A stretch of DNA of 64,000 nucleotides from Planctomycetota bacterium (GTDB taxonomy: Bacteria; Planctomycetota; B15-G4; JADJEK01): the NCBI GenBank assembly GCA_016213895.1, contig JACQZJ010000076.1, forward strand, positions 1,291 through 65,290. The letters are read 5' to 3'. Both the position numbers and the translations under genes were made by a program. The notes below the pieces were generated by a model. That model made no database searches and was not told where the DNA came from. It saw only the letters and a list, made by a program, of their open reading frames with translations. This document shows, piece by piece, positions 14,649 through 21,377 of the stretch (positions are counted from its first letter, which is position 1; each line of letters begins with the position of its first letter).

Positions 14649-17600
14649 GTGAGGCCTCGCTCGCGCCTCGCGGGGATCGTTGCGTTGGGTCTGGCCGGGA
14701 TAGCGGCCGCCGTGCTTCTGCTGCTGCGCGGGGGCCCAGGCGACCCCGAGCCCGTGTCCGAGAGCACGCCCGGCGTGGGGGCGGACGTGTCACTGGACGA
14801 GGGCCAGGAGCCGGATGTCGCGGCGCCGGAGGCAGAAGAGAGCCCGGCTCGCGAGGCCGTGCGCCAGGTGCGCGAGATGTGCTTCTTGCTTGGCGGGGAG
14901 CCCGCGGCCGCGACCGAGGTCTTCCTGCTGCCTTGGAGCGAGGAGATTCAGCGCGAGGCCGCATCGCAGGTCGGGCTGCGCAAGGACGTCATCGCGGCCG
15001 AGGCAGCGCGCCACGTGTCGGACGCCTCGGGCAGGCTCGCGGTGGAGCTGCCCGTGCCCCCGTTCTTCGTCGCCGCGCGCGCGCCAGGGTCCGCGCCGTT
15101 CGGCCGCCGCTTCGACTCATGGCCCGAGTCGATCACGCTCGATCTGCCCCTGGAGGAGCGCCTGCGCGGCATCGTCGTGAACACCCTGGGCGGCCCGACG
15201 GCGGGCGCGGTCGTTCTGGCGTACCGTGCCTTCCGCGACGAGTCCAACTTCGACGGCGTGACGGATGACGAGCAGCGCTTCGCCGGCATGTTCTTCGAGA
15301 GCCGGGTGGCAGTGGGCCTGGACGGCCGCTTCGACCTCGGGGGGCTGCCCGCGGCGCGGATCTACGCCATCGCCTACGCTCAGGGCCTGGCGTCCGATCG
15401 CCGTGCCGACTTCGTCTTGCCTTCCGGCGACCTCTGCGAGCTGCTGCTCCGGCCCGCGGTCACGGTGCGGGGCCGGGTGATCGCCGCCGAGTCCGAGCTT
15501 CCCATTGCTGGCGCGCAGGTGTCCCTCTACCAGCGCAACGGGCCCGTGGGCATCTTCGAACAGGAGATCACGGTCACGGACCGCGCGGGGCTGTTCGAGC
15601 TGCGCGCTGCCTACGTGGGGACGGAGCCCCTGAGCTTCCGCGTGGTGAAGCAGGGCTACGCCGCACTCATGGAGCGGGTCGAACGTTCGGCACTCGCTCG
15701 AGGCGAGGGGCTGGTGCTGCGGCTGCTCACCGCGCACCCGGTCGAAGGAACCGTCCGCTCGCAGGCCGGCGAGCCGCTCCCGGACGTGTGGGTCCAGGTC
15801 CACGAGGACGTGACGCTCGATCTCATCCACTTCACGAAGTCGGGCGAGGGCGGGCGCTTCCTGCTCGACTTCGTGGCGCCGGGACGGACCTACACGCTGA
15901 TCGGTTCGGGATACGGCTACTACGTGGAAACGTACGAACGCCTGGACTTGTGCGCGCAGGAGAACCTGGAGATCGTGCTCATGCCGCAGCCGGCGCTGCG
16001 CGGCCGCGCGGTGGTTCCTGATTACCCGCTGAGGAACGGACGGGCGCGTCTCGTCCAGGAGGACGAAGCCGGCAACCGTCTCGAGGTCAAGACGGCGGAC
16101 ATCGACGCGGACACCGGGGAGTTCGAGTTCAAGGACCTGGTCACGATGAACTACCTGCTGGACGTGGCGGCGGAAGGGTATGCCCCGGCGCGCGTCGGCC
16201 GGGTCGGGATCCTCGACCCTCCGGAGAAGAACGAAGTCGAAATCGCGCTGCAGCGCGGCGCCACGCTGCGCGGCCGCGTGTTCGATCGGGGCACGGGCAA
16301 GGCGGTGATCGGCGCCGCGATCGCGCTCGCCGACGTGAATCTCGGAGGCCACGCCCTCGGCGCCCTGCCTCTGGCCGCGGAGAGCACCACGGACGGCGAG
16401 GGGAACTACGTCCTGGAGCACGTGCCGACGGGAGCGCCGCTCCAGGTGACCGTGGATCATCCGGACTACGCCCTGGAACATCCGGATCTCCTGGTCGATC
16501 AGGGTGGCCTGTTCGCCCGTCTGGACGTTGGCCTGCGTCGCGGCGCAACGGTCACGATGACCATCGCCGACGAGCAGGGAGAGCGTTTCTCCGTGCTGGA
16601 AGGCGCGGCCTACAGCCCGGACGGTGCCGCGCGCTACGGCAGAGAGAGCGGTGGGGTGCTCCGCTTCGAGCGTCTACCTCCGGGCAAGACGATTGTGGAC
16701 GCGGGGATTCCGCCGCAAGTGCGCGAGGATCTCCGGCATCGCCACTTCGTTCGCGAGATGGTGCTCGCGGAGGGAGAGGAGCGGGCCGTCGCGTTTTCCC
16801 TCGCGGGCGGAGCGAGGATTCACGGCGTGGCCGGCGGTCCTGGGCTGTGCAACAGGTTCCGTCGGATCAGCATCGCCTCGCGGCCCGTCGAGGGATCTGA
16901 CACGGCGTTCGACCTCTGGACCGAGCCGGATGAGAAGGGCCGCTACGTGCTTCCCGGCGTGCCCCCGGGCCGGCGCTCCGTGTGGGTCGAGCCCGACGAC
17001 GTGGGCAGCGGCTTCAAGATCTCCAAGGTCGTGGACGTGACTCCGGGCGCGGACATCGAGCTGGACTTCTACCTCCCGCTCTCCGGCATCGAGGGCGCGG
17101 TGACGCGAGCGGATGGATCGACGATCGTGGGCGCGCTCGTCGAGGTGCGGCCGTGGGACCAGGCGAAGGGCGCGCCGGCGGAGAGCGCGGACTTCGAGCG
17201 CCAGGAGGCGAAGTCGACCCAGGAGGGCAGGTACTTCCTCGCGGGAGTGAAGCAGGGCACGTATGGCCTTGCGGCCGAAGCGGAGGGCTTCGGCCGCGTG
17301 GAGGACGTGGTCACCGTGCCCGATGAGGAGACGGTCCTCCGCCGCGACGTGGTGCTCGAGCCCGAGGCTCTGCTCGAGGTTCTGGCGACCGACCGGGGCG
17401 GTGCGCCGCTGGCTGAGGTCGAGTGCTCGGCGCGGCGCGCCGGCGGGTCTTGGTCGGCCGCTCTCCCGGTGCGCAAGGAGTGGCTGCCCGAGCGCCGCGT
17501 GTTCTTCGGCGCGGCGAGCGGCGAGTACCTGGTGCGCGCGGCGGCCGAGGGCTTCTTCCCGGCCGAGGTCCAGGCGTCTTGCCGCTCCGGGCAGACCACG

Positions 17601-17909
17601 AACCTGACGATCGCGCTGCGCCGCCGGGGCGTGCTGCGCGTGAAGGTCATCACCGCGGCGGGCGCACCGGCACGATCCATGCCGCTCGAGGTCATCGACG
17701 TCGAGACCGGGACCTCCGCCGGCGCGTGGCTCGCCGCGGGTCTGGTGACGAGCACGCCGTCCTCGGCCGTTACGGACGAGAAGGGGGAGCTGCGTCTGGA
17801 CGGCCTGCCGGAGGGGCAGTTCCGCGTGAGCGGGCTGGGCGTGACCGTGACCGCGCGCGTGGCCGCGGGCGAGGAGGCCGGCCAGGTGACGCTGATGCTG
17901 CCGCAGTGA
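14649..17909 (+). CDS. Giant membrane-anchored protein with multiple carboxypeptidase-regulatory-like (CarboxypepD_reg / transthyretin-like) beta-sandwich repeats
   Basis: An N-terminal TM segment (LAGIVALGLAGIAAAVLLLL) is followed by repeated modules of the pattern TVRGRV...G.P..GA.V.L......TD..G.F.L, for example TVRGRVIAAESELPIAGAQVSLYQ...TVTDRAGLFELR and TLRGRVFDRGTGKAVIGAAIALADV...TTDGEGNYVLEHVPTG. Probable GTG start. Confidence 0.75.
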   Translation: MRPRSRLAGIVALGLAGIAAAVLLLLRGGPGDPEPVSESTPGVGADVSLDEGQEPDVAAPEAEESPAREAVRQVREMCFLLGGEPAAATEVFLLPWSEEIQREAASQVGLRKDVIAAEAARHVSDASGRLAVELPVPPFFVAARAPGSAPFGRRFDSWPESITLDLPLEERLRGIVVNTLGGPTAGAVVLAYRAFRDESNFDGVTDDEQRFAGMFFESRVAVGLDGRFDLGGLPAARIYAIAYAQGLASDRRADFVLPSGDLCELLLRPAVTVRGRVIAAESELPIAGAQVSLYQRNGPVGIFEQEITVTDRAGLFELRAAYVGTEPLSFRVVKQGYAALMERVERSALARGEGLVLRLLTAHPVEGTVRSQAGEPLPDVWVQVHEDVTLDLIHFTKSGEGGRFLLDFVAPGRTYTLIGSGYGYYVETYERLDLCAQENLEIVLMPQPALRGRAVVPDYPLRNGRARLVQEDEAGNRLEVKTADIDADTGEFEFKDLVTMNYLLDVAAEGYAPARVGRVGILDPPEKNEVEIALQRGATLRGRVFDRGTGKAVIGAAIALADVNLGGHALGALPLAAESTTDGEGNYVLEHVPTGAPLQVTVDHPDYALEHPDLLVDQGGLFARLDVGLRRGATVTMTIADEQGERFSVLEGAAYSPDGAARYGRESGGVLRFERLPPGKTIVDAGIPPQVREDLRHRHFVREMVLAEGEERAVAFSLAGGARIHGVAGGPGLCNRFRRISIASRPVEGSDTAFDLWTEPDEKGRYVLPGVPPGRRSVWVEPDDVGSGFKISKVVDVTPGADIELDFYLPLSGIEGAVTRADGSTIVGALVEVRPWDQAKGAPAESADFERQEAKSTQEGRYFLAGVKQGTYGLAAEAEGFGRVEDVVTVPDEETVLRRDVVLEPEALLEVLATDRGGAPLAEVECSARRAGGSWSAALPVRKEWLPERRVFFGAASGEYLVRAAAEGFFPAEVQASCRSGQTTNLTIALRRRGVLRVKVITAAGAPARSMPLEVIDVETGTSAGAWLAAGLVTSTPSSAVTDEKGELRLDGLPEGQFRVSGLGVTVTARVAAGEEAGQVTLMLPQ

Positions 17910-17934: not shown

Positions 17935-19776
17935 CTACTTCCCGGCCGGCTCGCCCAGGAGCGTGCGGATCTCGGCGATGCGCTTCAGGAACTCCTGCGC
18001 CTGTGCGCTGTCCGGGTTGGCCTCGGCCAGCTTGAGGAACGCGCTCTCGGCGCCGTCGAGATCGCCGGAGAAGAACGAGACGTAGCCGAGCAGGAAGCGG
18101 GCGTCGGCGTCGGTGGGGTTCGCGTCCGTAAACACGCGGAGAGCGATGGTGTGCTCGGCCAGGTCATCCGGCCGGCCGTAGAGTTCATGCAGGGACGCGC
18201 CCGCCGCCGGCCACTCGGGCATGACCTCCATGCCGCGGCGGATGAAGAAGGCCGCATACTGGTACTCGCCCAGGGCGAAGAGCGCGTGCGCCAGCGCGAA
18301 CTTGGGGATGGCGTTGTGCGCCTCGGCGAGCATGGCTCGCCGGAACAGGTCGGCCGCGCCGCGGTAGTCGCCCGACTTGAACTTGGCCGCGCCTTGTTCC
18401 AGGCAGGCCACGGCGTTCTCGTCTTCGCCCAGCTCGCGCAGCTCCTCCCCGAGGCGTGCGGGGATTTCCGGCTCCGCCGCGGGCTCGGGAGCTGCCGCGG
18501 GCTCGGCATAGGTCGGGTAGTAGACCACGGTCTCGGAGTAAGACGGAACCGCGACCGGCTGGTAGCTCACGTACGCCGGATAGGCGTAGTGGTTCCAGAT
18601 CGGGTAGTAGCCGAACCAGAAGTGCCACCAGAAGTAGTCGTGGAAGTAGTGGTGGTGGCCGTGGAACAGGTAGTGGTGGTGGTAGTAGGGGTAGTGCCAG
18701 AAGCAGTCGAAGACGCCGCCGACCAGGCCCCAGGCCAGGTAGTCCTCCCAGTCCCAGTCGTCGTAGTCCACGTCCACGTCGACGTCCACGTCGACGTCGC
18801 CGTCATCCACGTCGACATCGACGTCCACGTCCACGTCCTGCGGAACGGCGTCGATGTCCTCCTTGAGGCGGGCGTTCGTGTCCGGCCCGTCCGCGAGCTG
18901 GCCGCGGATCTGGTCGCGCAGCGCGTCGTTCCGGTGCAACCTCGCGCTGGTCGCGTTCCGGCCGGTGTTCAGGGAGACCGGCGATGCCGCCCGGGCAATC
19001 GTCGCGTCCCGGCCGCCGAGGGTCGTGGCGCTGCCGGCCGAGCGGAAGGCCGAGGGCTCCATGCGCGTGCCCAGGCCCGACGAGGTGATGGTGCGCGGGG
19101 TCGAGGAGCGCGAACGCGTGAACGAGTCGACGCTCATGGAGCGGCCGAGGTGGCTCGGCGAAATCGTGTCGGTCGAGGAGAAGCCCGAGCGCGTGCCTCT
19201 CACGAGCGTGCCGGAAGAGCGCAGCCCGTCCGAAGAGGAGCGCGTGAAGGTCCTGGTCGAGGAGCGGGGCGCGCTGGTCAGAGAGCCGCTGCTCCGGTCG
19301 CGGAACACCCTGTTCGAGCGGAAGGACGGTGTGCTGTCGCTGCCGAACGAGCGGCTGCTCGAACCGAAGGACCGGCTGCTGCCGCCGAACGAACGGGTGC
19401 TGCCACCGAAGGACCGGCTGCTGCCGCCGAATGAGCGGGTGCTGCCGCCGAAGGACCGGCTGCCGCCGCCGAACGAACGGTTGCTGCCGCCGAAGGACCG
19501 GCTGCTCGAGCCGAACGAGCGGCTGCTGCCTCCGAAGGAGCGGCTGCTCGACCCAAAGGACCTGCTGCTGCCGCCAAACGATCGGCTGCCGCCGCCGAAG
19601 GACCGGCTGCTCGACCCGAACGACCGGCTGCCGGAGGAGACCCCGCCGCCGCCCGAGCGGCCGCCGCGCGAGCCCGCGTCGAGCAGCGTGACCGGAACCG
19701 CCACGGCGCCGACGAGCAGCACTGCCAGCAGAGTTCCCCTGCGGCCAGGAAGGATGGAACGTGCGATCATGCGCAT
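17935..19776 (-). CDS. Secreted/anchored low-complexity repeat protein: signal/TM, 22 x SRSFGGS heptads, S/T/R-rich tract, (DV)n acidic tract, His/Tyr/Trp-rich block, C-terminal TPR domain
   Basis: The start MRMIARSILPGRRGTLLAVLLVGAVAVPVTLL is preceded by GAGGAGG 7 nt upstream. The tandem heptads SSRSFGG/SSRSFGS/STRSFGG follow, then QDVDVDVDVDVDDGDVDVDVDVDVDYDDWDWEDY, then WHYPYYHHHYLFHGHHHYFHDYFWWHFWFGYYPIWNHYAYPAY. The C-terminal 180 aa look TPR-like (GDYRGAADLFRRAMLAEAHNAIPKFALAHALFALGEYQYAAFF...). Confidence 0.75.
   Translation of the reverse strand: MRMIARSILPGRRGTLLAVLLVGAVAVPVTLLDAGSRGGRSGGGGVSSGSRSFGSSSRSFGGGSRSFGGSSRSFGSSSRSFGGSSRSFGSSSRSFGGSNRSFGGGSRSFGGSTRSFGGSSRSFGGSTRSFGGSSRSFGSSSRSFGSDSTPSFRSNRVFRDRSSGSLTSAPRSSTRTFTRSSSDGLRSSGTLVRGTRSGFSSTDTISPSHLGRSMSVDSFTRSRSSTPRTITSSGLGTRMEPSAFRSAGSATTLGGRDATIARAASPVSLNTGRNATSARLHRNDALRDQIRGQLADGPDTNARLKEDIDAVPQDVDVDVDVDVDDGDVDVDVDVDVDYDDWDWEDYLAWGLVGGVFDCFWHYPYYHHHYLFHGHHHYFHDYFWWHFWFGYYPIWNHYAYPAYVSYQPVAVPSYSETVVYYPTYAEPAAAPEPAAEPEIPARLGEELRELGEDENAVACLEQGAAKFKSGDYRGAADLFRRAMLAEAHNAIPKFALAHALFALGEYQYAAFFIRRGMEVMPEWPAAGASLHELYGRPDDLAEHTIALRVFTDANPTDADARFLLGYVSFFSGDLDGAESAFLKLAEANPDSAQAQEFLKRIAEIRTLLGEPAGK
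19340..19645. repeat. About 14 tandem copies of a 21-bp unit (ccgaaSgaSCggctgctgccg) encoding the SRSFGGS heptads
   Basis: Direct reading of the plus strand shows repeated ccgaacgagcggctgctgccg and ccgaaggaccggctgctgccg units. All three frames on both strands give repetitive ORFs (the 316-aa and 120-aa plus-strand track ORFs are repeat artefacts). Confidence 0.9.
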
Positions 19777-19978
19777 GGGGGGCCTCCTCGTCACGGACGG
19801 GTGACGGCCACGCCAGACCAGCGGAGAGGTGCATTCTAGCCCAAGGACAGCGGGGTGCGCCAGCGGCGCAGCGATCACGCGGCCAGCCGCGCAGACCCCG
19901 GCGCGGATGAACCCGGCGTGGGGAGAAGTCCTCACCGCTTGCCCGTTCAACGACCCGCCGGTGCGGACGGCCGCGGCG

Positions 19979-20476
19979 TCAGGTCTCGCCCACCTCCCTG
20001 CACGCGAAGTCGATGAGCCAGTCGGCGATGTAGTAGCCGCTTTCTCGGATGGCCCGGAGCAGGGGCCCGACTGCTGACACGAGCTCGTGCCTGCGGGCTG
20101 AGACCACCGTACCGACCACGCCCCGGACGCGCAGACCATACGCGAGGACCGCCACCCGTCGCGCCCTCAGGTCGTCGATCAGGAGCAGGCTGGCGCCCCG
20201 CCGGGAGGCGAGGGTGATGGCTTCGGCCTCTCCAGCACCGAAATCCTCGGAGAGGAGCGAATCCGGGGGCCGTTCCAGCTGAACGCGCTCGACCCAGTCC
20301 GCGGCCCTCAGCTCCCTCGATCCCGGGAGGCTCTCACCCTGGATGACGGTTTCGCGCCAGACGGCATCGGGAACCAGGAGTCTGCCGTACAACTTCGCAA
20401 GGAGATCCAGTCGCCCAACAACCGCGAGAGCGATGATGGGCCCGGTGTTGGACACGACGGGCCCGCGCTCAGTCAT
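19979..20476 (-). CDS. DUF3368/COG2405-type PIN-like nucleic-acid-binding protein (putative toxin)
   Basis: The sequence MTERGPVVSNTGPIIALAVVGRLDLLAKLYGRLLVPDAVWRE matches the characteristic N-terminus of the DUF3368 family (PIN-like). At 165 aa it is paired with the upstream UPF0175 gene. Confidence 0.65.
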   Translation of the reverse strand: MTERGPVVSNTGPIIALAVVGRLDLLAKLYGRLLVPDAVWRETVIQGESLPGSRELRAADWVERVQLERPPDSLLSEDFGAGEAEAITLASRRGASLLLIDDLRARRVAVLAYGLRVRGVVGTVVSARRHELVSAVGPLLRAIRESGYYIADWLIDFACREVGET

Positions 20477-20720
20477 CAGCGCACTCCCGCGCGGCCTCGT
20501 CGCGGTCGATGTTGACCACGGAAACGCCCATCCGGCTCGCTCGTCCCAGGAAGTCGACCCGGCTGATCCCGCAGAGCACGGCGGCCTTTCCCGACGAGAC
20601 CCTGCCCAGTTCGAAGAGTTTCAGAGCGAGCAGGAACTTCGCCTCCCGCACGAACTCGTCCCGGGAAAGTCCGGTGGAGAGCAGCACGCTCTCCGGCAAC
20701 TCGATCGTGAGCGGCGGCAT
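20469..20720 (-). CDS. UPF0175-family small protein (putative antitoxin partner of DUF3368)
   Basis: The 83-aa sequence MPPLTIELPESVLLSTGLSRDEFVREAKFLLALKLFELGRVSSGKAAVLCGISRVDFL matches the UPF0175 signature. It overlaps the downstream gene by 8 nt. Confidence 0.65.
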   Translation of the reverse strand: MPPLTIELPESVLLSTGLSRDEFVREAKFLLALKLFELGRVSSGKAAVLCGISRVDFLGRASRMGVSVVNIDRDEAARECADD

Positions 20721-20835: not shown

Positions 20836-21294
20836 TCAGTCCGCGGACGACGTGTGGTCAAGCACGATCCGCCACTCGTCGCCGATCCGACGGAAGAGCA
20901 GCGTGAACCTGCCCTTGGGCTGATCTTCCGGCCGTTCCAGGAGCCATGCGCCCGTGACCACGGCCGCGTCCTCGGCCAGCACGCGCACCTCGAGGTCGGA
21001 GAACGAGAGCTTGCCCATGCGGCCGGGCTCGCCGTAGGCCGCGTGGTAGCCGTCCCGGGTCTCCTGCCAGCCCCGGCGCACCTTGTCCCCGGACACGAAC
21101 ACCAGCTCGGGCGAACGCAGGTAGCCCTTCATGTACTCGTCGATGAGCCCGGCGTTCCAGGCGCGCTCCTGCTCGGCGAGCACGCCGCGCACCGCCTCCT
21201 CGGCCCGTGTGAACTCGGCCACGGTGAGCCCGGACGGTCCCTGCGTGCAGGCGAGGAACGGCAGAACGAAAAGGCAGCGGAGGGGCGCTATCAT
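20836..21294 (-). CDS. NTF2-like/SnoaL-like (DUF4440-type) lipoprotein
   Basis: The start MIAPLRCLFVLPFLACTQG has a lipobox-like LAC. The mature protein is about 130 aa with W/Y-containing NTF2-like fold segments (RAEEAVRGVLAEQERAWNAG...GAWLLERPEDQPKGRFTLLFRRIGDEWRIVLDH). Confidence 0.55.
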   Translation of the reverse strand: MIAPLRCLFVLPFLACTQGPSGLTVAEFTRAEEAVRGVLAEQERAWNAGLIDEYMKGYLRSPELVFVSGDKVRRGWQETRDGYHAAYGEPGRMGKLSFSDLEVRVLAEDAAVVTGAWLLERPEDQPKGRFTLLFRRIGDEWRIVLDHTSSAD

Positions 21295-21377
21295 GGCGGG
21301 GACGACTCCTGTAGCGGTCGCCGTGGCCGGCTGGCAGTGCGCCATATTATGACTCCGCGGGAGAGGATGCCCGCCGC

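Follow-up and report, generated by a model that had tools for sequence, protein, structure and literature searches.

An unnamed family of predicted exported tetratricopeptide repeat proteins in Planctomycetota, with a disordered basic arm and an aromatic block

Introduction

What is the product of a gene that joins short arginine- and phenylalanine-bearing repeats, an alternating valine/aspartate tract and a block of histidine and aromatic residues to a tetratricopeptide repeat (TPR) domain, and what could such a protein do? The gene encodes 613 amino acids (aa) and lies in a 64,000-nucleotide (nt) stretch of a Planctomycetota genome assembly (GCA_016213895.1, contig JACQZJ010000076.1, positions 1,291 to 65,290), referred to here as the window. 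An earlier note, based on the letters of the window, had described an export signal, repeats, a Ser/Thr/Arg linker, an acidic tract, an aromatic/His block and a TPR domain, and this overall architecture was found to be right. It is strongly supported that the mature protein consists of ~400 disordered residues followed by a folded C-terminal TPR domain of ~170 residues; an exported scaffold or adaptor of the cell envelope is tentatively proposed as its function.

Evidence that the full reading frame is translated

The minus-strand open reading frame (ORF) ending at 17935 is 734 aa long in its longest form and 613 aa when begun at the ATG at 19776, which lies ~200 nt past the stop of the upstream PIN gene. 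The 613-aa frame of the earlier note is therefore present at 17935-19776, with its ATG behind a GAGGAGG ribosome-binding site, and its GC content at third codon positions (GC3) is 0.92. The start-context motif GACGAGGAGG is also found upstream of an orthologue, L005, which comes from an independent assembly labelled Phycisphaera mikurensis isolate FI88_71_9; this orthologue, 93% identical in its C-terminal part, also has a signal peptide and a repeat region related, but not identical, to that of the window protein. A promoter and terminator scan at the gene found none, as expected at such GC content. Publicly, only the C-terminal 422 aa are annotated (P0001, 'MAG: tetratricopeptide repeat protein [Planctomycetes bacterium]'), corresponding to window positions 17935-19200 and starting at an internal GTG at residue 192.

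This shorter annotation could be taken to mean that the repeat region is an assembly error or is untranslated, with a true product of 422 aa, as the NCBI call has it; long ORFs also arise by chance in DNA of 70% GC. An antisense ORF of 316 aa (18854-19804, plus strand) runs across the repeat region, encodes PPKDRLL/PPNERLL heptads and has a GC3 of 0.91 with gene-like GC content at the first and second codon positions. As it shares the third-position phase and a gene-like composition with the sense frame, all six frames were compared with L005. The amino-acid divergence of the sense frame is 17.6% over the heptads and 27.6% over residues 1-305, against at least 37% and at least 38%, respectively, in the other five frames. 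The antisense ORF was rejected as a real gene, as it diverges from L005 about twice as far as the sense frame does; it is evidently a by-product of high GC content and third-position phase.

The repeats themselves carry further evidence. By exact count of RSFG there are 14 heptads, in register every seven residues, and Tandem Repeats Finder reports a 21-nt unit in 14.3 copies at 19333-19633; the figure of ~22 heptads given earlier was too high, and the exact number is the number as assembled, verification of which needs reads. The 14 units are mutually only 79% identical in DNA, the invariant R-S-F-G being written with five Arg, three Ser and four Gly codons. As the units differ at synonymous sites, the heptad peptide appears to have been kept by selection, and is neither a fresh nor a collapsed DNA repeat. 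In the aligned heptad region, the window and L005 are separated by 39 synonymous and 19 amino-acid changes, with 15, 20 and 48 differences at codon positions 1, 2 and 3. The orthologue has nine RSFG units (13 looser units) with indels, compared to 14 in the window; the variation in repeat number that the earlier note proposed to look for in orthologues is thus seen.

Both scenarios named beforehand as possible refutations are contradicted: an assembly artefact by the L005 copy with its synonymous changes and by the codon diversity among units, and an untranslated ORF by the sense frame being the least divergent of six. In addition, the ribosome-binding site and signal peptide are conserved in position, and 13 other loci keep the signal peptide and the arm. 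An artefact is hardly credible on these grounds, and the translation of the full 613 aa from a real gene is strongly supported.

A family hidden by gene calling

A search with the C-terminal 305 residues returned 25 proteins, and a genome scan returned 12 loci, of which seven are labelled Phycisphaeraceae, Phycisphaerales or Phycisphaera, four 'Planctomycetota bacterium' and one 'bacterium'. A profile search returned 299 cluster representatives at E<1e-30; its 6,588 matches at E<1e-10 are mostly generic TPR proteins. All named members are entered as 'tetratricopeptide repeat protein [Planctomycetota]', the closest being from Phycisphaerales. Literature searches on the repeat strings and on planctomycete disordered, periplasmic or TPR proteins found no description of the family. 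The earlier statement that no described protein with such an architecture was recognised stands insofar as no curated family or paper was found, but the protein is not a one-off given the 299 representatives. There is nothing unusual in the TPR domain itself; neither Pfam, NCBIfam, the PDB nor the literature searched has a description of the architecture or of the family. As judged from these sequences, the existence of a large, unnamed family that appears restricted to Planctomycetota is strongly supported.

In almost all members, the signal peptide and arm are lost in gene calling, so that databases show short, cytoplasmic-looking 'TPR proteins' and the architecture is hidden. Most homologue entries begin at an internal Met, often inside a conserved motif (MSVDSF..., MTLDRF...). 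In the upstream DNA of relatives the frame is open in every case and can be traced to a Met, behind which come a signal peptide and a long low-complexity region; the thirteen other loci mentioned above have both in frame before the called start. The miscalled arms appear as ~1-kb 'intergenic' gaps in L002 (3893-5001) and L003 (3977-5001), and lie under a spurious 260-aa ORF in another frame in L001 (1063-1845).

The family plan consists of an AxA signal peptide, a basic, disordered arm rich in Ser, Gly, Thr and Pro, often a periodic charged tract, a Trp/Tyr block and an acidic TPR domain. Among 34 full-length members sampled, the plan is constant in 33, the remaining one (P0053) having no aromatic block by the criterion used. 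In these 33, the arm is 137-386 residues long with a net charge of +10 to +45, the aromatic block spans 39-104 residues, and the C-terminal part has a net charge of -5 to -34. The window protein conforms, with an arm of +27 over 277 residues (+30 for residues 34-305) and a C-terminal part of -15; by segment, the net charges are +15 for the heptads, +15 for the Ser/Thr/Arg linker, -21 for the acidic tract and -9 for the TPR part. By the family criterion, its block, which immediately precedes the TPR domain, is 63 aa long, with seven Trp, 13 Tyr, seven Phe and 11 His.

What fills the arm differs between lineages: SRSFGG heptads in the window protein and L005, SSRSYSP in L002, SRSSYGS in L001 and L007, Gly runs with Arg, His or Asn in L009-L013, and stretches rich in Ser, Thr, Arg, Lys and Pro in L014-L016. 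By sequence comparison, the shared slots appear to be filled in a lineage-specific way, here with RSFGG heptads, a (DV)n tract and enrichment in His. This bears on the suggestion that the RSFGG heptads form a cohesive barrier in the manner of Phe-Gly (FG) nucleoporins, which would agree with 14 F-G dipeptides in a disordered context rich in Ser and Gly. The heptads, however, carry an Arg in every unit at a spacing of only seven residues, and FG itself is not conserved, the orthologous arms being filled with SSRSYSP, SRSSYG, Gly runs or S/T/R/K/P. FG nucleoporins have conserved FG and largely uncharged spacers and are located in the cytoplasm or pore, while the location predicted here from sequence is outside the cytoplasm, given the cleavable export signal. 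The likeness fails at the family level, and an FG-type barrier is highly improbable.

Signal peptide and export

The N-terminus is read as a signal peptide as small residues are kept at -3 and -1, a Pro is found at -7, the n-region is short and basic, and no second hydrophobic segment follows. The signal peptidase I site, placed by the von Heijne -3/-1 rule, is predicted at L-D-A34|G35 (A-x-A), and an AxA|G/Q pattern is found in 14 of 14 full-length relatives as well as in ~20 more distant ones; Pro at -7 is common to close relatives. Many family members also have Cys-rich aromatic blocks, which were counted among the points for export. The 'signal/TM anchor' of the earlier note was correct in that there is a single hydrophobic segment and it is N-terminal; a conserved, cleavable signal peptide is a better reading of it than a membrane anchor. 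Taken from these sequence features, the protein is a predicted Sec-exported precursor, cleaved probably after Ala34.

The TPR domain

The TPR domain passes the Pfam cut-offs of TPR_19 (1.6e-12, 48 bits, cut-off 25), TPR_2 (8.6e-9, 35.3 bits, cut-off 27) and TPR_8 (26.2 bits, cut-off 25.7), and the three-dimensional helix-turn-helix repeat array that defines the TPR superfamily (Pfam clan TPR) is present. AlphaFold2, given a family alignment and run both for residues 300-613 and for the whole protein, is confident for the TPR domain alone: the predicted local distance difference test score (pLDDT) is >90 at ~440-607 and <50 for residues 1-350. The globular TPR C-terminus was thereby confirmed, and the suggested check by disorder and structure prediction gave a division between the N-terminal 350 residues and the TPR domain. 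A family signature, NA[VI]PKFA.AHALFALG.Y, lies at residues 488-505, and an insert that is not part of TPR repeats, WP..G..L..LYG, at 522-534; the columns of both are invariant or nearly so in the two alignments made (A1, A2). The invariant positions are G462, F466, L499, A501, G503, A508, W522, Y533 and L546.

Searches of Pfam and NCBIfam with the protein and 30 family members returned TPR models only, and PDB searches returned only generic TPRs, the nearest folds being peptide-binding ones. Weak sub-threshold matches to PrsT, LcrH, MamA and YbgF were put down to generic TPR similarity and rejected. Compared to generic peptide-binding TPRs such as HOP TPR1, Sgt2, P58IPK, PEX5 and CTPR, the protein has its own signature and insert and does not have the 'carboxylate clamp' K-x-x-G-N; helix A1 reads LEQGAAKF, with the clamp Lys and Asn absent. 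These relatives are, moreover, cytosolic, while the window protein is predicted to be exported. Against the CpoB/YbgF model (TIGR02795) it scores 24.9 bits, far below the cut-off of 90.1; it has no coiled-coil N-domain and a much longer arm, CpoB has no aromatic block, and tol-pal genes were found neither beside the window gene nor in the related loci. The planctomycete YTV cell-wall protein model (PF07639) gave no match at E<=1 with the protein, nor with any of 30 family members.

The extreme C-terminus varies among relatives. Many proteins end in ...GG (PPGG, TEGG, PVGG, SGG, AGG, HGG, GEGG or GGGG in P0004-P0010, P0012, P0013, P0030, P0032 and P0034); the window protein ends in PAGK and L005 runs on to ...EQPPEPVEK. 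In P0122 and P0164, an extra C-terminal domain of ~110 aa follows the TPR domain (...LVGTWVAKAGNTTITLSVDD...FKWSA...) and has no Pfam match.

Short motifs in the disordered arm

Within the otherwise variable arm, the pattern LG.[PSTR][MI]...[SATQR]F is conserved among Phycisphaerales-type members, with 22 occurrences in 21 relatives where shuffles give an expectation of 0.014; the count is descriptive, as the pattern was derived from the same sequences. The window protein has two copies, LGRSMSVDSF and LGTRMEPSAF, the second being identical in L005. A search with the N-terminal 313 residues returned the protein itself and four marginal low-complexity matches, with no sign of the arm on other domains. 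In a more distant clade (L014-L016, P0018, P0040-P0051), another arm motif, [RK]P.F[KENHR][YF], for example RPDFKY, is found at a comparable place.

The valine/aspartate tract

The (DV)n tract claimed in the earlier note is present at residues 314-337 (window 18769-18837) and reads DVDVDVDVDV-DDG-DVDVDVDVDV-D. Over the 45 codons of the acidic tract, L005 has one amino-acid change and eight synonymous ones, and the DV repeat itself is unchanged. Read as VDVDVDVDV-DDGD-VDVDVDVDV (residues 315-336), the tract has two strands in which hydrophobic and charged residues strictly alternate, set around a four-residue turn, which is the layout of the designed MAX1/VD1-type hairpins. VD1 (VDVDVDVDV-DPPT-DVDVDVDV) forms a hydrogel at 150 mM NaCl in acetate buffer (PMC12940918), and the related peptide Ac-V(DV)4, or V(DV)4, is soluble alone and forms amyloid once mixed with a cationic alternating peptide (PMC5770463). 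The natural tract differs from VD1 in having the turn DDGD in place of D-Pro-Pro-Thr, in lying inside a 613-aa protein and in being replaced in sister lineages. As the tract is nearly VD1 and V(DV)4 assembles with a cationic partner, a charge-gated hairpin is chemically plausible; by this analogy, the tract could form an amphipathic beta-hairpin on charge neutralisation, possibly by the protein's own arm, and would do so at the level of this lineage only.

One genome (CAZYQW01, binchicken_co31_357) has two paralogues (L006, L008) that differ in the tract found at one shared position, acidic DW/DY in one and basic (KY)n in the other. These two might co-assemble through complementary charged strands.

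The aromatic/histidine block

The block WHYPYYHHHYLFHGHHHYFHDYFWWHFWFGYYPIWNHYAYPAY holds 11 His, 11 Tyr, five Trp and five Phe in 43 aa, or 74% of these four residues, in agreement with the earlier claim of >70%. The C-terminal half of the block has a family-conserved core, W.x.FGYYP[IV]Y..Y.YP.YV.Y.P, and Trp/Tyr richness is the constant of the block across the family. The AlphaFold2 pLDDT of the block is 57-74, and in the segment behind it, strands are placed at 404-410 and 413-422 with a pLDDT of ~55. Residues 351-405 differ from L005 by three amino-acid changes in 55 codons, of which two are inside the 43-residue block and remove His (to Trp and Pro). Among 131 family blocks, the median His content is 5%, 36 blocks have at least seven His, 14 have at most three His and Cys together, and some have neither.

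The earlier note took this cluster for a metal-binding, biomineral or adhesive segment. On that account, the His/Asp-rich region at 306-402 would act as a chelator of Cu, Zn, Ni or Fe in metal buffering or mineral nucleation, or the block would serve as a wet adhesive at the cell surface. It agrees with the presence of 11 His in 43 residues beside 21 acidic residues, with the recurrence of His/Asp-rich tracts in the family subset of 36 blocks, and with export, which would put the protein where metals and surfaces are met. A weak anticorrelation of His and Cys counts over the 131 blocks (Spearman -0.34) would fit interchangeable ligands, but such interchange was rejected as evidence of a metal site as the correlation is weak and some members are without both residues. 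Conservation speaks against the account: His is not conserved in the block, as the median content and the two substitutions in the 93% identical orthologue demonstrate, so that a metal or biomineral role would be at best lineage-specific. Hpn-like His-rich metal proteins have conserved His clusters, which are not found here; no known metal-binding family was matched in Pfam or NCBIfam, and no outer-membrane secretion or surface-sorting signal was recognised. A metal-binding, biomineral or adhesive role, plausible in His/Asp-rich lineages such as this one, is considered unlikely.

His/Asp-rich sequence is also seen outside the window, for example HHDDDDDHHHHHDHHHH in P0167. In the distant clade with the RPDFKY-type arm motif, the aromatic block is Cys-rich, for example CCSCCGCPWWDCIWC, instead of His-rich.

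The universal Trp/Tyr richness of the block, together with an arm that is always net basic, would also suit a membrane-surface anchor, in which the block would hold the TPR domain at the membrane, inner or outer, by partitioning into its interface after signal-peptide cleavage, and the arm would bind anionic lipid head groups or lipopolysaccharide. A Wimley-White interfacial energy of -20.9 kcal/mol (-12.2 kcal/mol with His protonated), summed over the 43-aa block and calculated purely from composition, is favourable to this. The same composition, however, suits protein-protein or protein-glycan stacking equally well, and the moderate pLDDT may mean that the block packs on the TPR domain. Such an anchor is likewise judged unlikely.

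Stacking on sugars leads to a further alternative, in which the block would set Trp and Tyr on sugar rings like a small carbohydrate-binding module, on glycan or peptidoglycan, with the TPR domain bringing an enzyme or partner to the wall or polysaccharide. Small carbohydrate-binding modules typically have aromatic platforms with Cys, and a Trp/Tyr-dominated block, three to eight Cys in many members and predicted export are in line with this. No carbohydrate-binding family was matched at E<=1, however, by the protein or by 30 family members; the window protein has one Cys, odd Cys counts are commoner than even ones in the family (70 versus 39), and the block is not confidently folded. A glycan binder is therefore judged very unlikely.

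Proposed function and points against it

The reading that is preferred, tentatively and with slightly less than even confidence, is an exported envelope scaffold or adaptor in which the TPR domain docks a peptide while the charge-segregated arm and the aromatic block give multivalent association. Four observations lead to it. Constraint is strongest in the TPR domain, which resembles peptide-docking TPRs; short motifs of the type bound by such domains are conserved in the arm; the polarity of basic arm and acidic TPR domain is universal in the family; and Arg and aromatic residues set in Ser/Gly spacers are followed by a dense aromatic block. Arg and aromatic residues in Ser/Gly spacers favour multivalent cation-pi association.

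In this mechanism, the TPR domain would dock a short peptide ligand, for which the LGRxMxxxSF arm motifs of the same or a neighbouring molecule are candidates. Together, the basic arm (+30), the acidic tract (-21), the aromatic block and the TPR domain with its net negative charge may offer many weak contacts, both Arg-aromatic and electrostatic. Such contacts would lead to self-association or to the coating of anionic envelope surfaces, and would be sensitive to pH, salt and divalent cations. A likeness to FUS-type RGG/Tyr-rich condensate domains is seen in the Arg and aromatic residues in Ser/Gly spacers, the separate aromatic block and the charge segregation; the window protein differs in being bacterial, predicted to be exported and without an RNA-binding domain, and the resemblance is one of composition only.

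Several points weigh against the scaffold or adaptor. Scaffolding and self-association are what we infer from composition, and the descriptive part of this account is far more secure than the mechanism. In the full-length AlphaFold2 model, confidence does not rise at the LGRxMxxxSF motifs (pLDDT 34-42), and the V/D tract, with a pLDDT of 36-46, has no strand (AlphaFold2 being uninformative for conditional folding), so that the model lends support neither to arm-motif docking nor to a V/D hairpin. Charged tracts differ in kind between lineages: (DV)n in the window, (KY)n in L008-L013 and acidic-aromatic (DW/DY/DF) in sister lineages. Basic residues right behind the cleavage site, which disfavour Sec export in E. 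coli, are a further difficulty, and the neighbourhood in 10 loci yields no deducible partner.

The proteins have also been considered as a phylum-wide exported class that builds a stimulus-gated gel or condensate in the periplasm or at the surface. The arm, the block and a (VD)n-turn-(VD)n switch would respond to pH, cations or a partner, and the TPR domain would recruit clients. This is judged distinctly unlikely.

Features of the locus and gene neighbourhood

The features of the protein and of its surroundings are collected in Table 1. The 1,086-aa protein encoded on the opposite strand ends close by, the two stop codons being 25 nt apart. On its far side, the DUF4440 gene is flanked by genes for a PolB-exo-like protein, a NUDIX protein and a tricorn-like S41 protease. 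The series of tricorn, NUDIX, exo, (DUF4440) and target gene recurs in L001-L003 without the toxin-antitoxin pair, which looks like a lineage-specific insertion since it is missing at the syntenic position in these loci.

In the 10 loci analysed, synteny is limited to close Phycisphaeraceae relatives, and distant members have unrelated neighbours. The window, L003 (3513-3977) and the distant L020 (6720-7973) each have, on the strand of the family gene and immediately upstream of it, a DUF4440 gene, which five other loci lack there; a link of DUF4440 to the function of the family is possible but weak.

Table 1. Features of the TPR protein gene and its neighbours (window positions; residues of the 613-aa protein)
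Feature	Residues	Positions	Strand	Basis or remark
Complete coding sequence, 613 aa plus stop	1-613	17935..19776	-	ORF list, translation
Ribosome-binding site GAGGAGG, 6-nt spacer to ATG		19783..19789	-	Direct reading
Predicted signal peptide: four Arg in n-region, 18-aa hydrophobic core, Pro at -7	1-34	19675..19776	-	Sole hydrophobic segment of the protein
Gly/Arg lead-in of the mature protein, GSRGGRSGGGGVSS	35-48	19633..19674	-	G-x-R-G/K-G then Gly run in L002, L005, L006, L007, L009-L013
14 tandem heptads, [S/G][S/T/N]RSFG[G/S]	49-146	19339..19632	-	Exact RSFG count, in register every seven residues
Degenerate repeats and basic Ser/Thr/Arg-rich disordered linker, net +15	147-305	18862..19338	-	Composition, charge, AlphaFold2 pLDDT <50
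Short linear motif, copy 1, LGRSMSVDSF	210-219	19120..19149	-	Family pattern
Short linear motif, copy 2, LGTRMEPSAF	235-244	19045..19074	-	Family pattern; identical in L005
Acidic tract, net -21	306-350	18727..18861	-	Composition, charge
Aromatic/His block, 43 aa	360-402	18571..18699	-	Composition
Tyr/Val/Pro-rich segment VSYQPVAVPSYSETVVYYPTYAE, weak predicted beta-hairpin	403-425	18502..18570	-	Family-conserved
TPR domain, net acidic	440-608	17953..18459	-	Pfam, AlphaFold2
1,086-aa protein: N-terminal hydrophobic segment, at least four CarboxypepD_reg/PEGA-like domains		14649-17909	+	Converges on the target gene
PIN-domain toxin		19979-20476	-	Between the DUF4440 gene and the target gene
UPF0175 antitoxin		20469-20720	-	8-nt overlap with the PIN toxin
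DUF4440/SnoaL-like gene		20836-21345	-	Upstream of the target gene, same strand

Significance

The unusual cell envelope of Planctomycetota is still poorly understood. With its hundreds of clusters, its usual presence in one or two copies per genome and its fixed plan, the family is a plausible missing component of this envelope. In the lineage of the window protein, moreover, a natural V/D tract nearly reproduces a peptide that was designed as a charge-gated hydrogel former.

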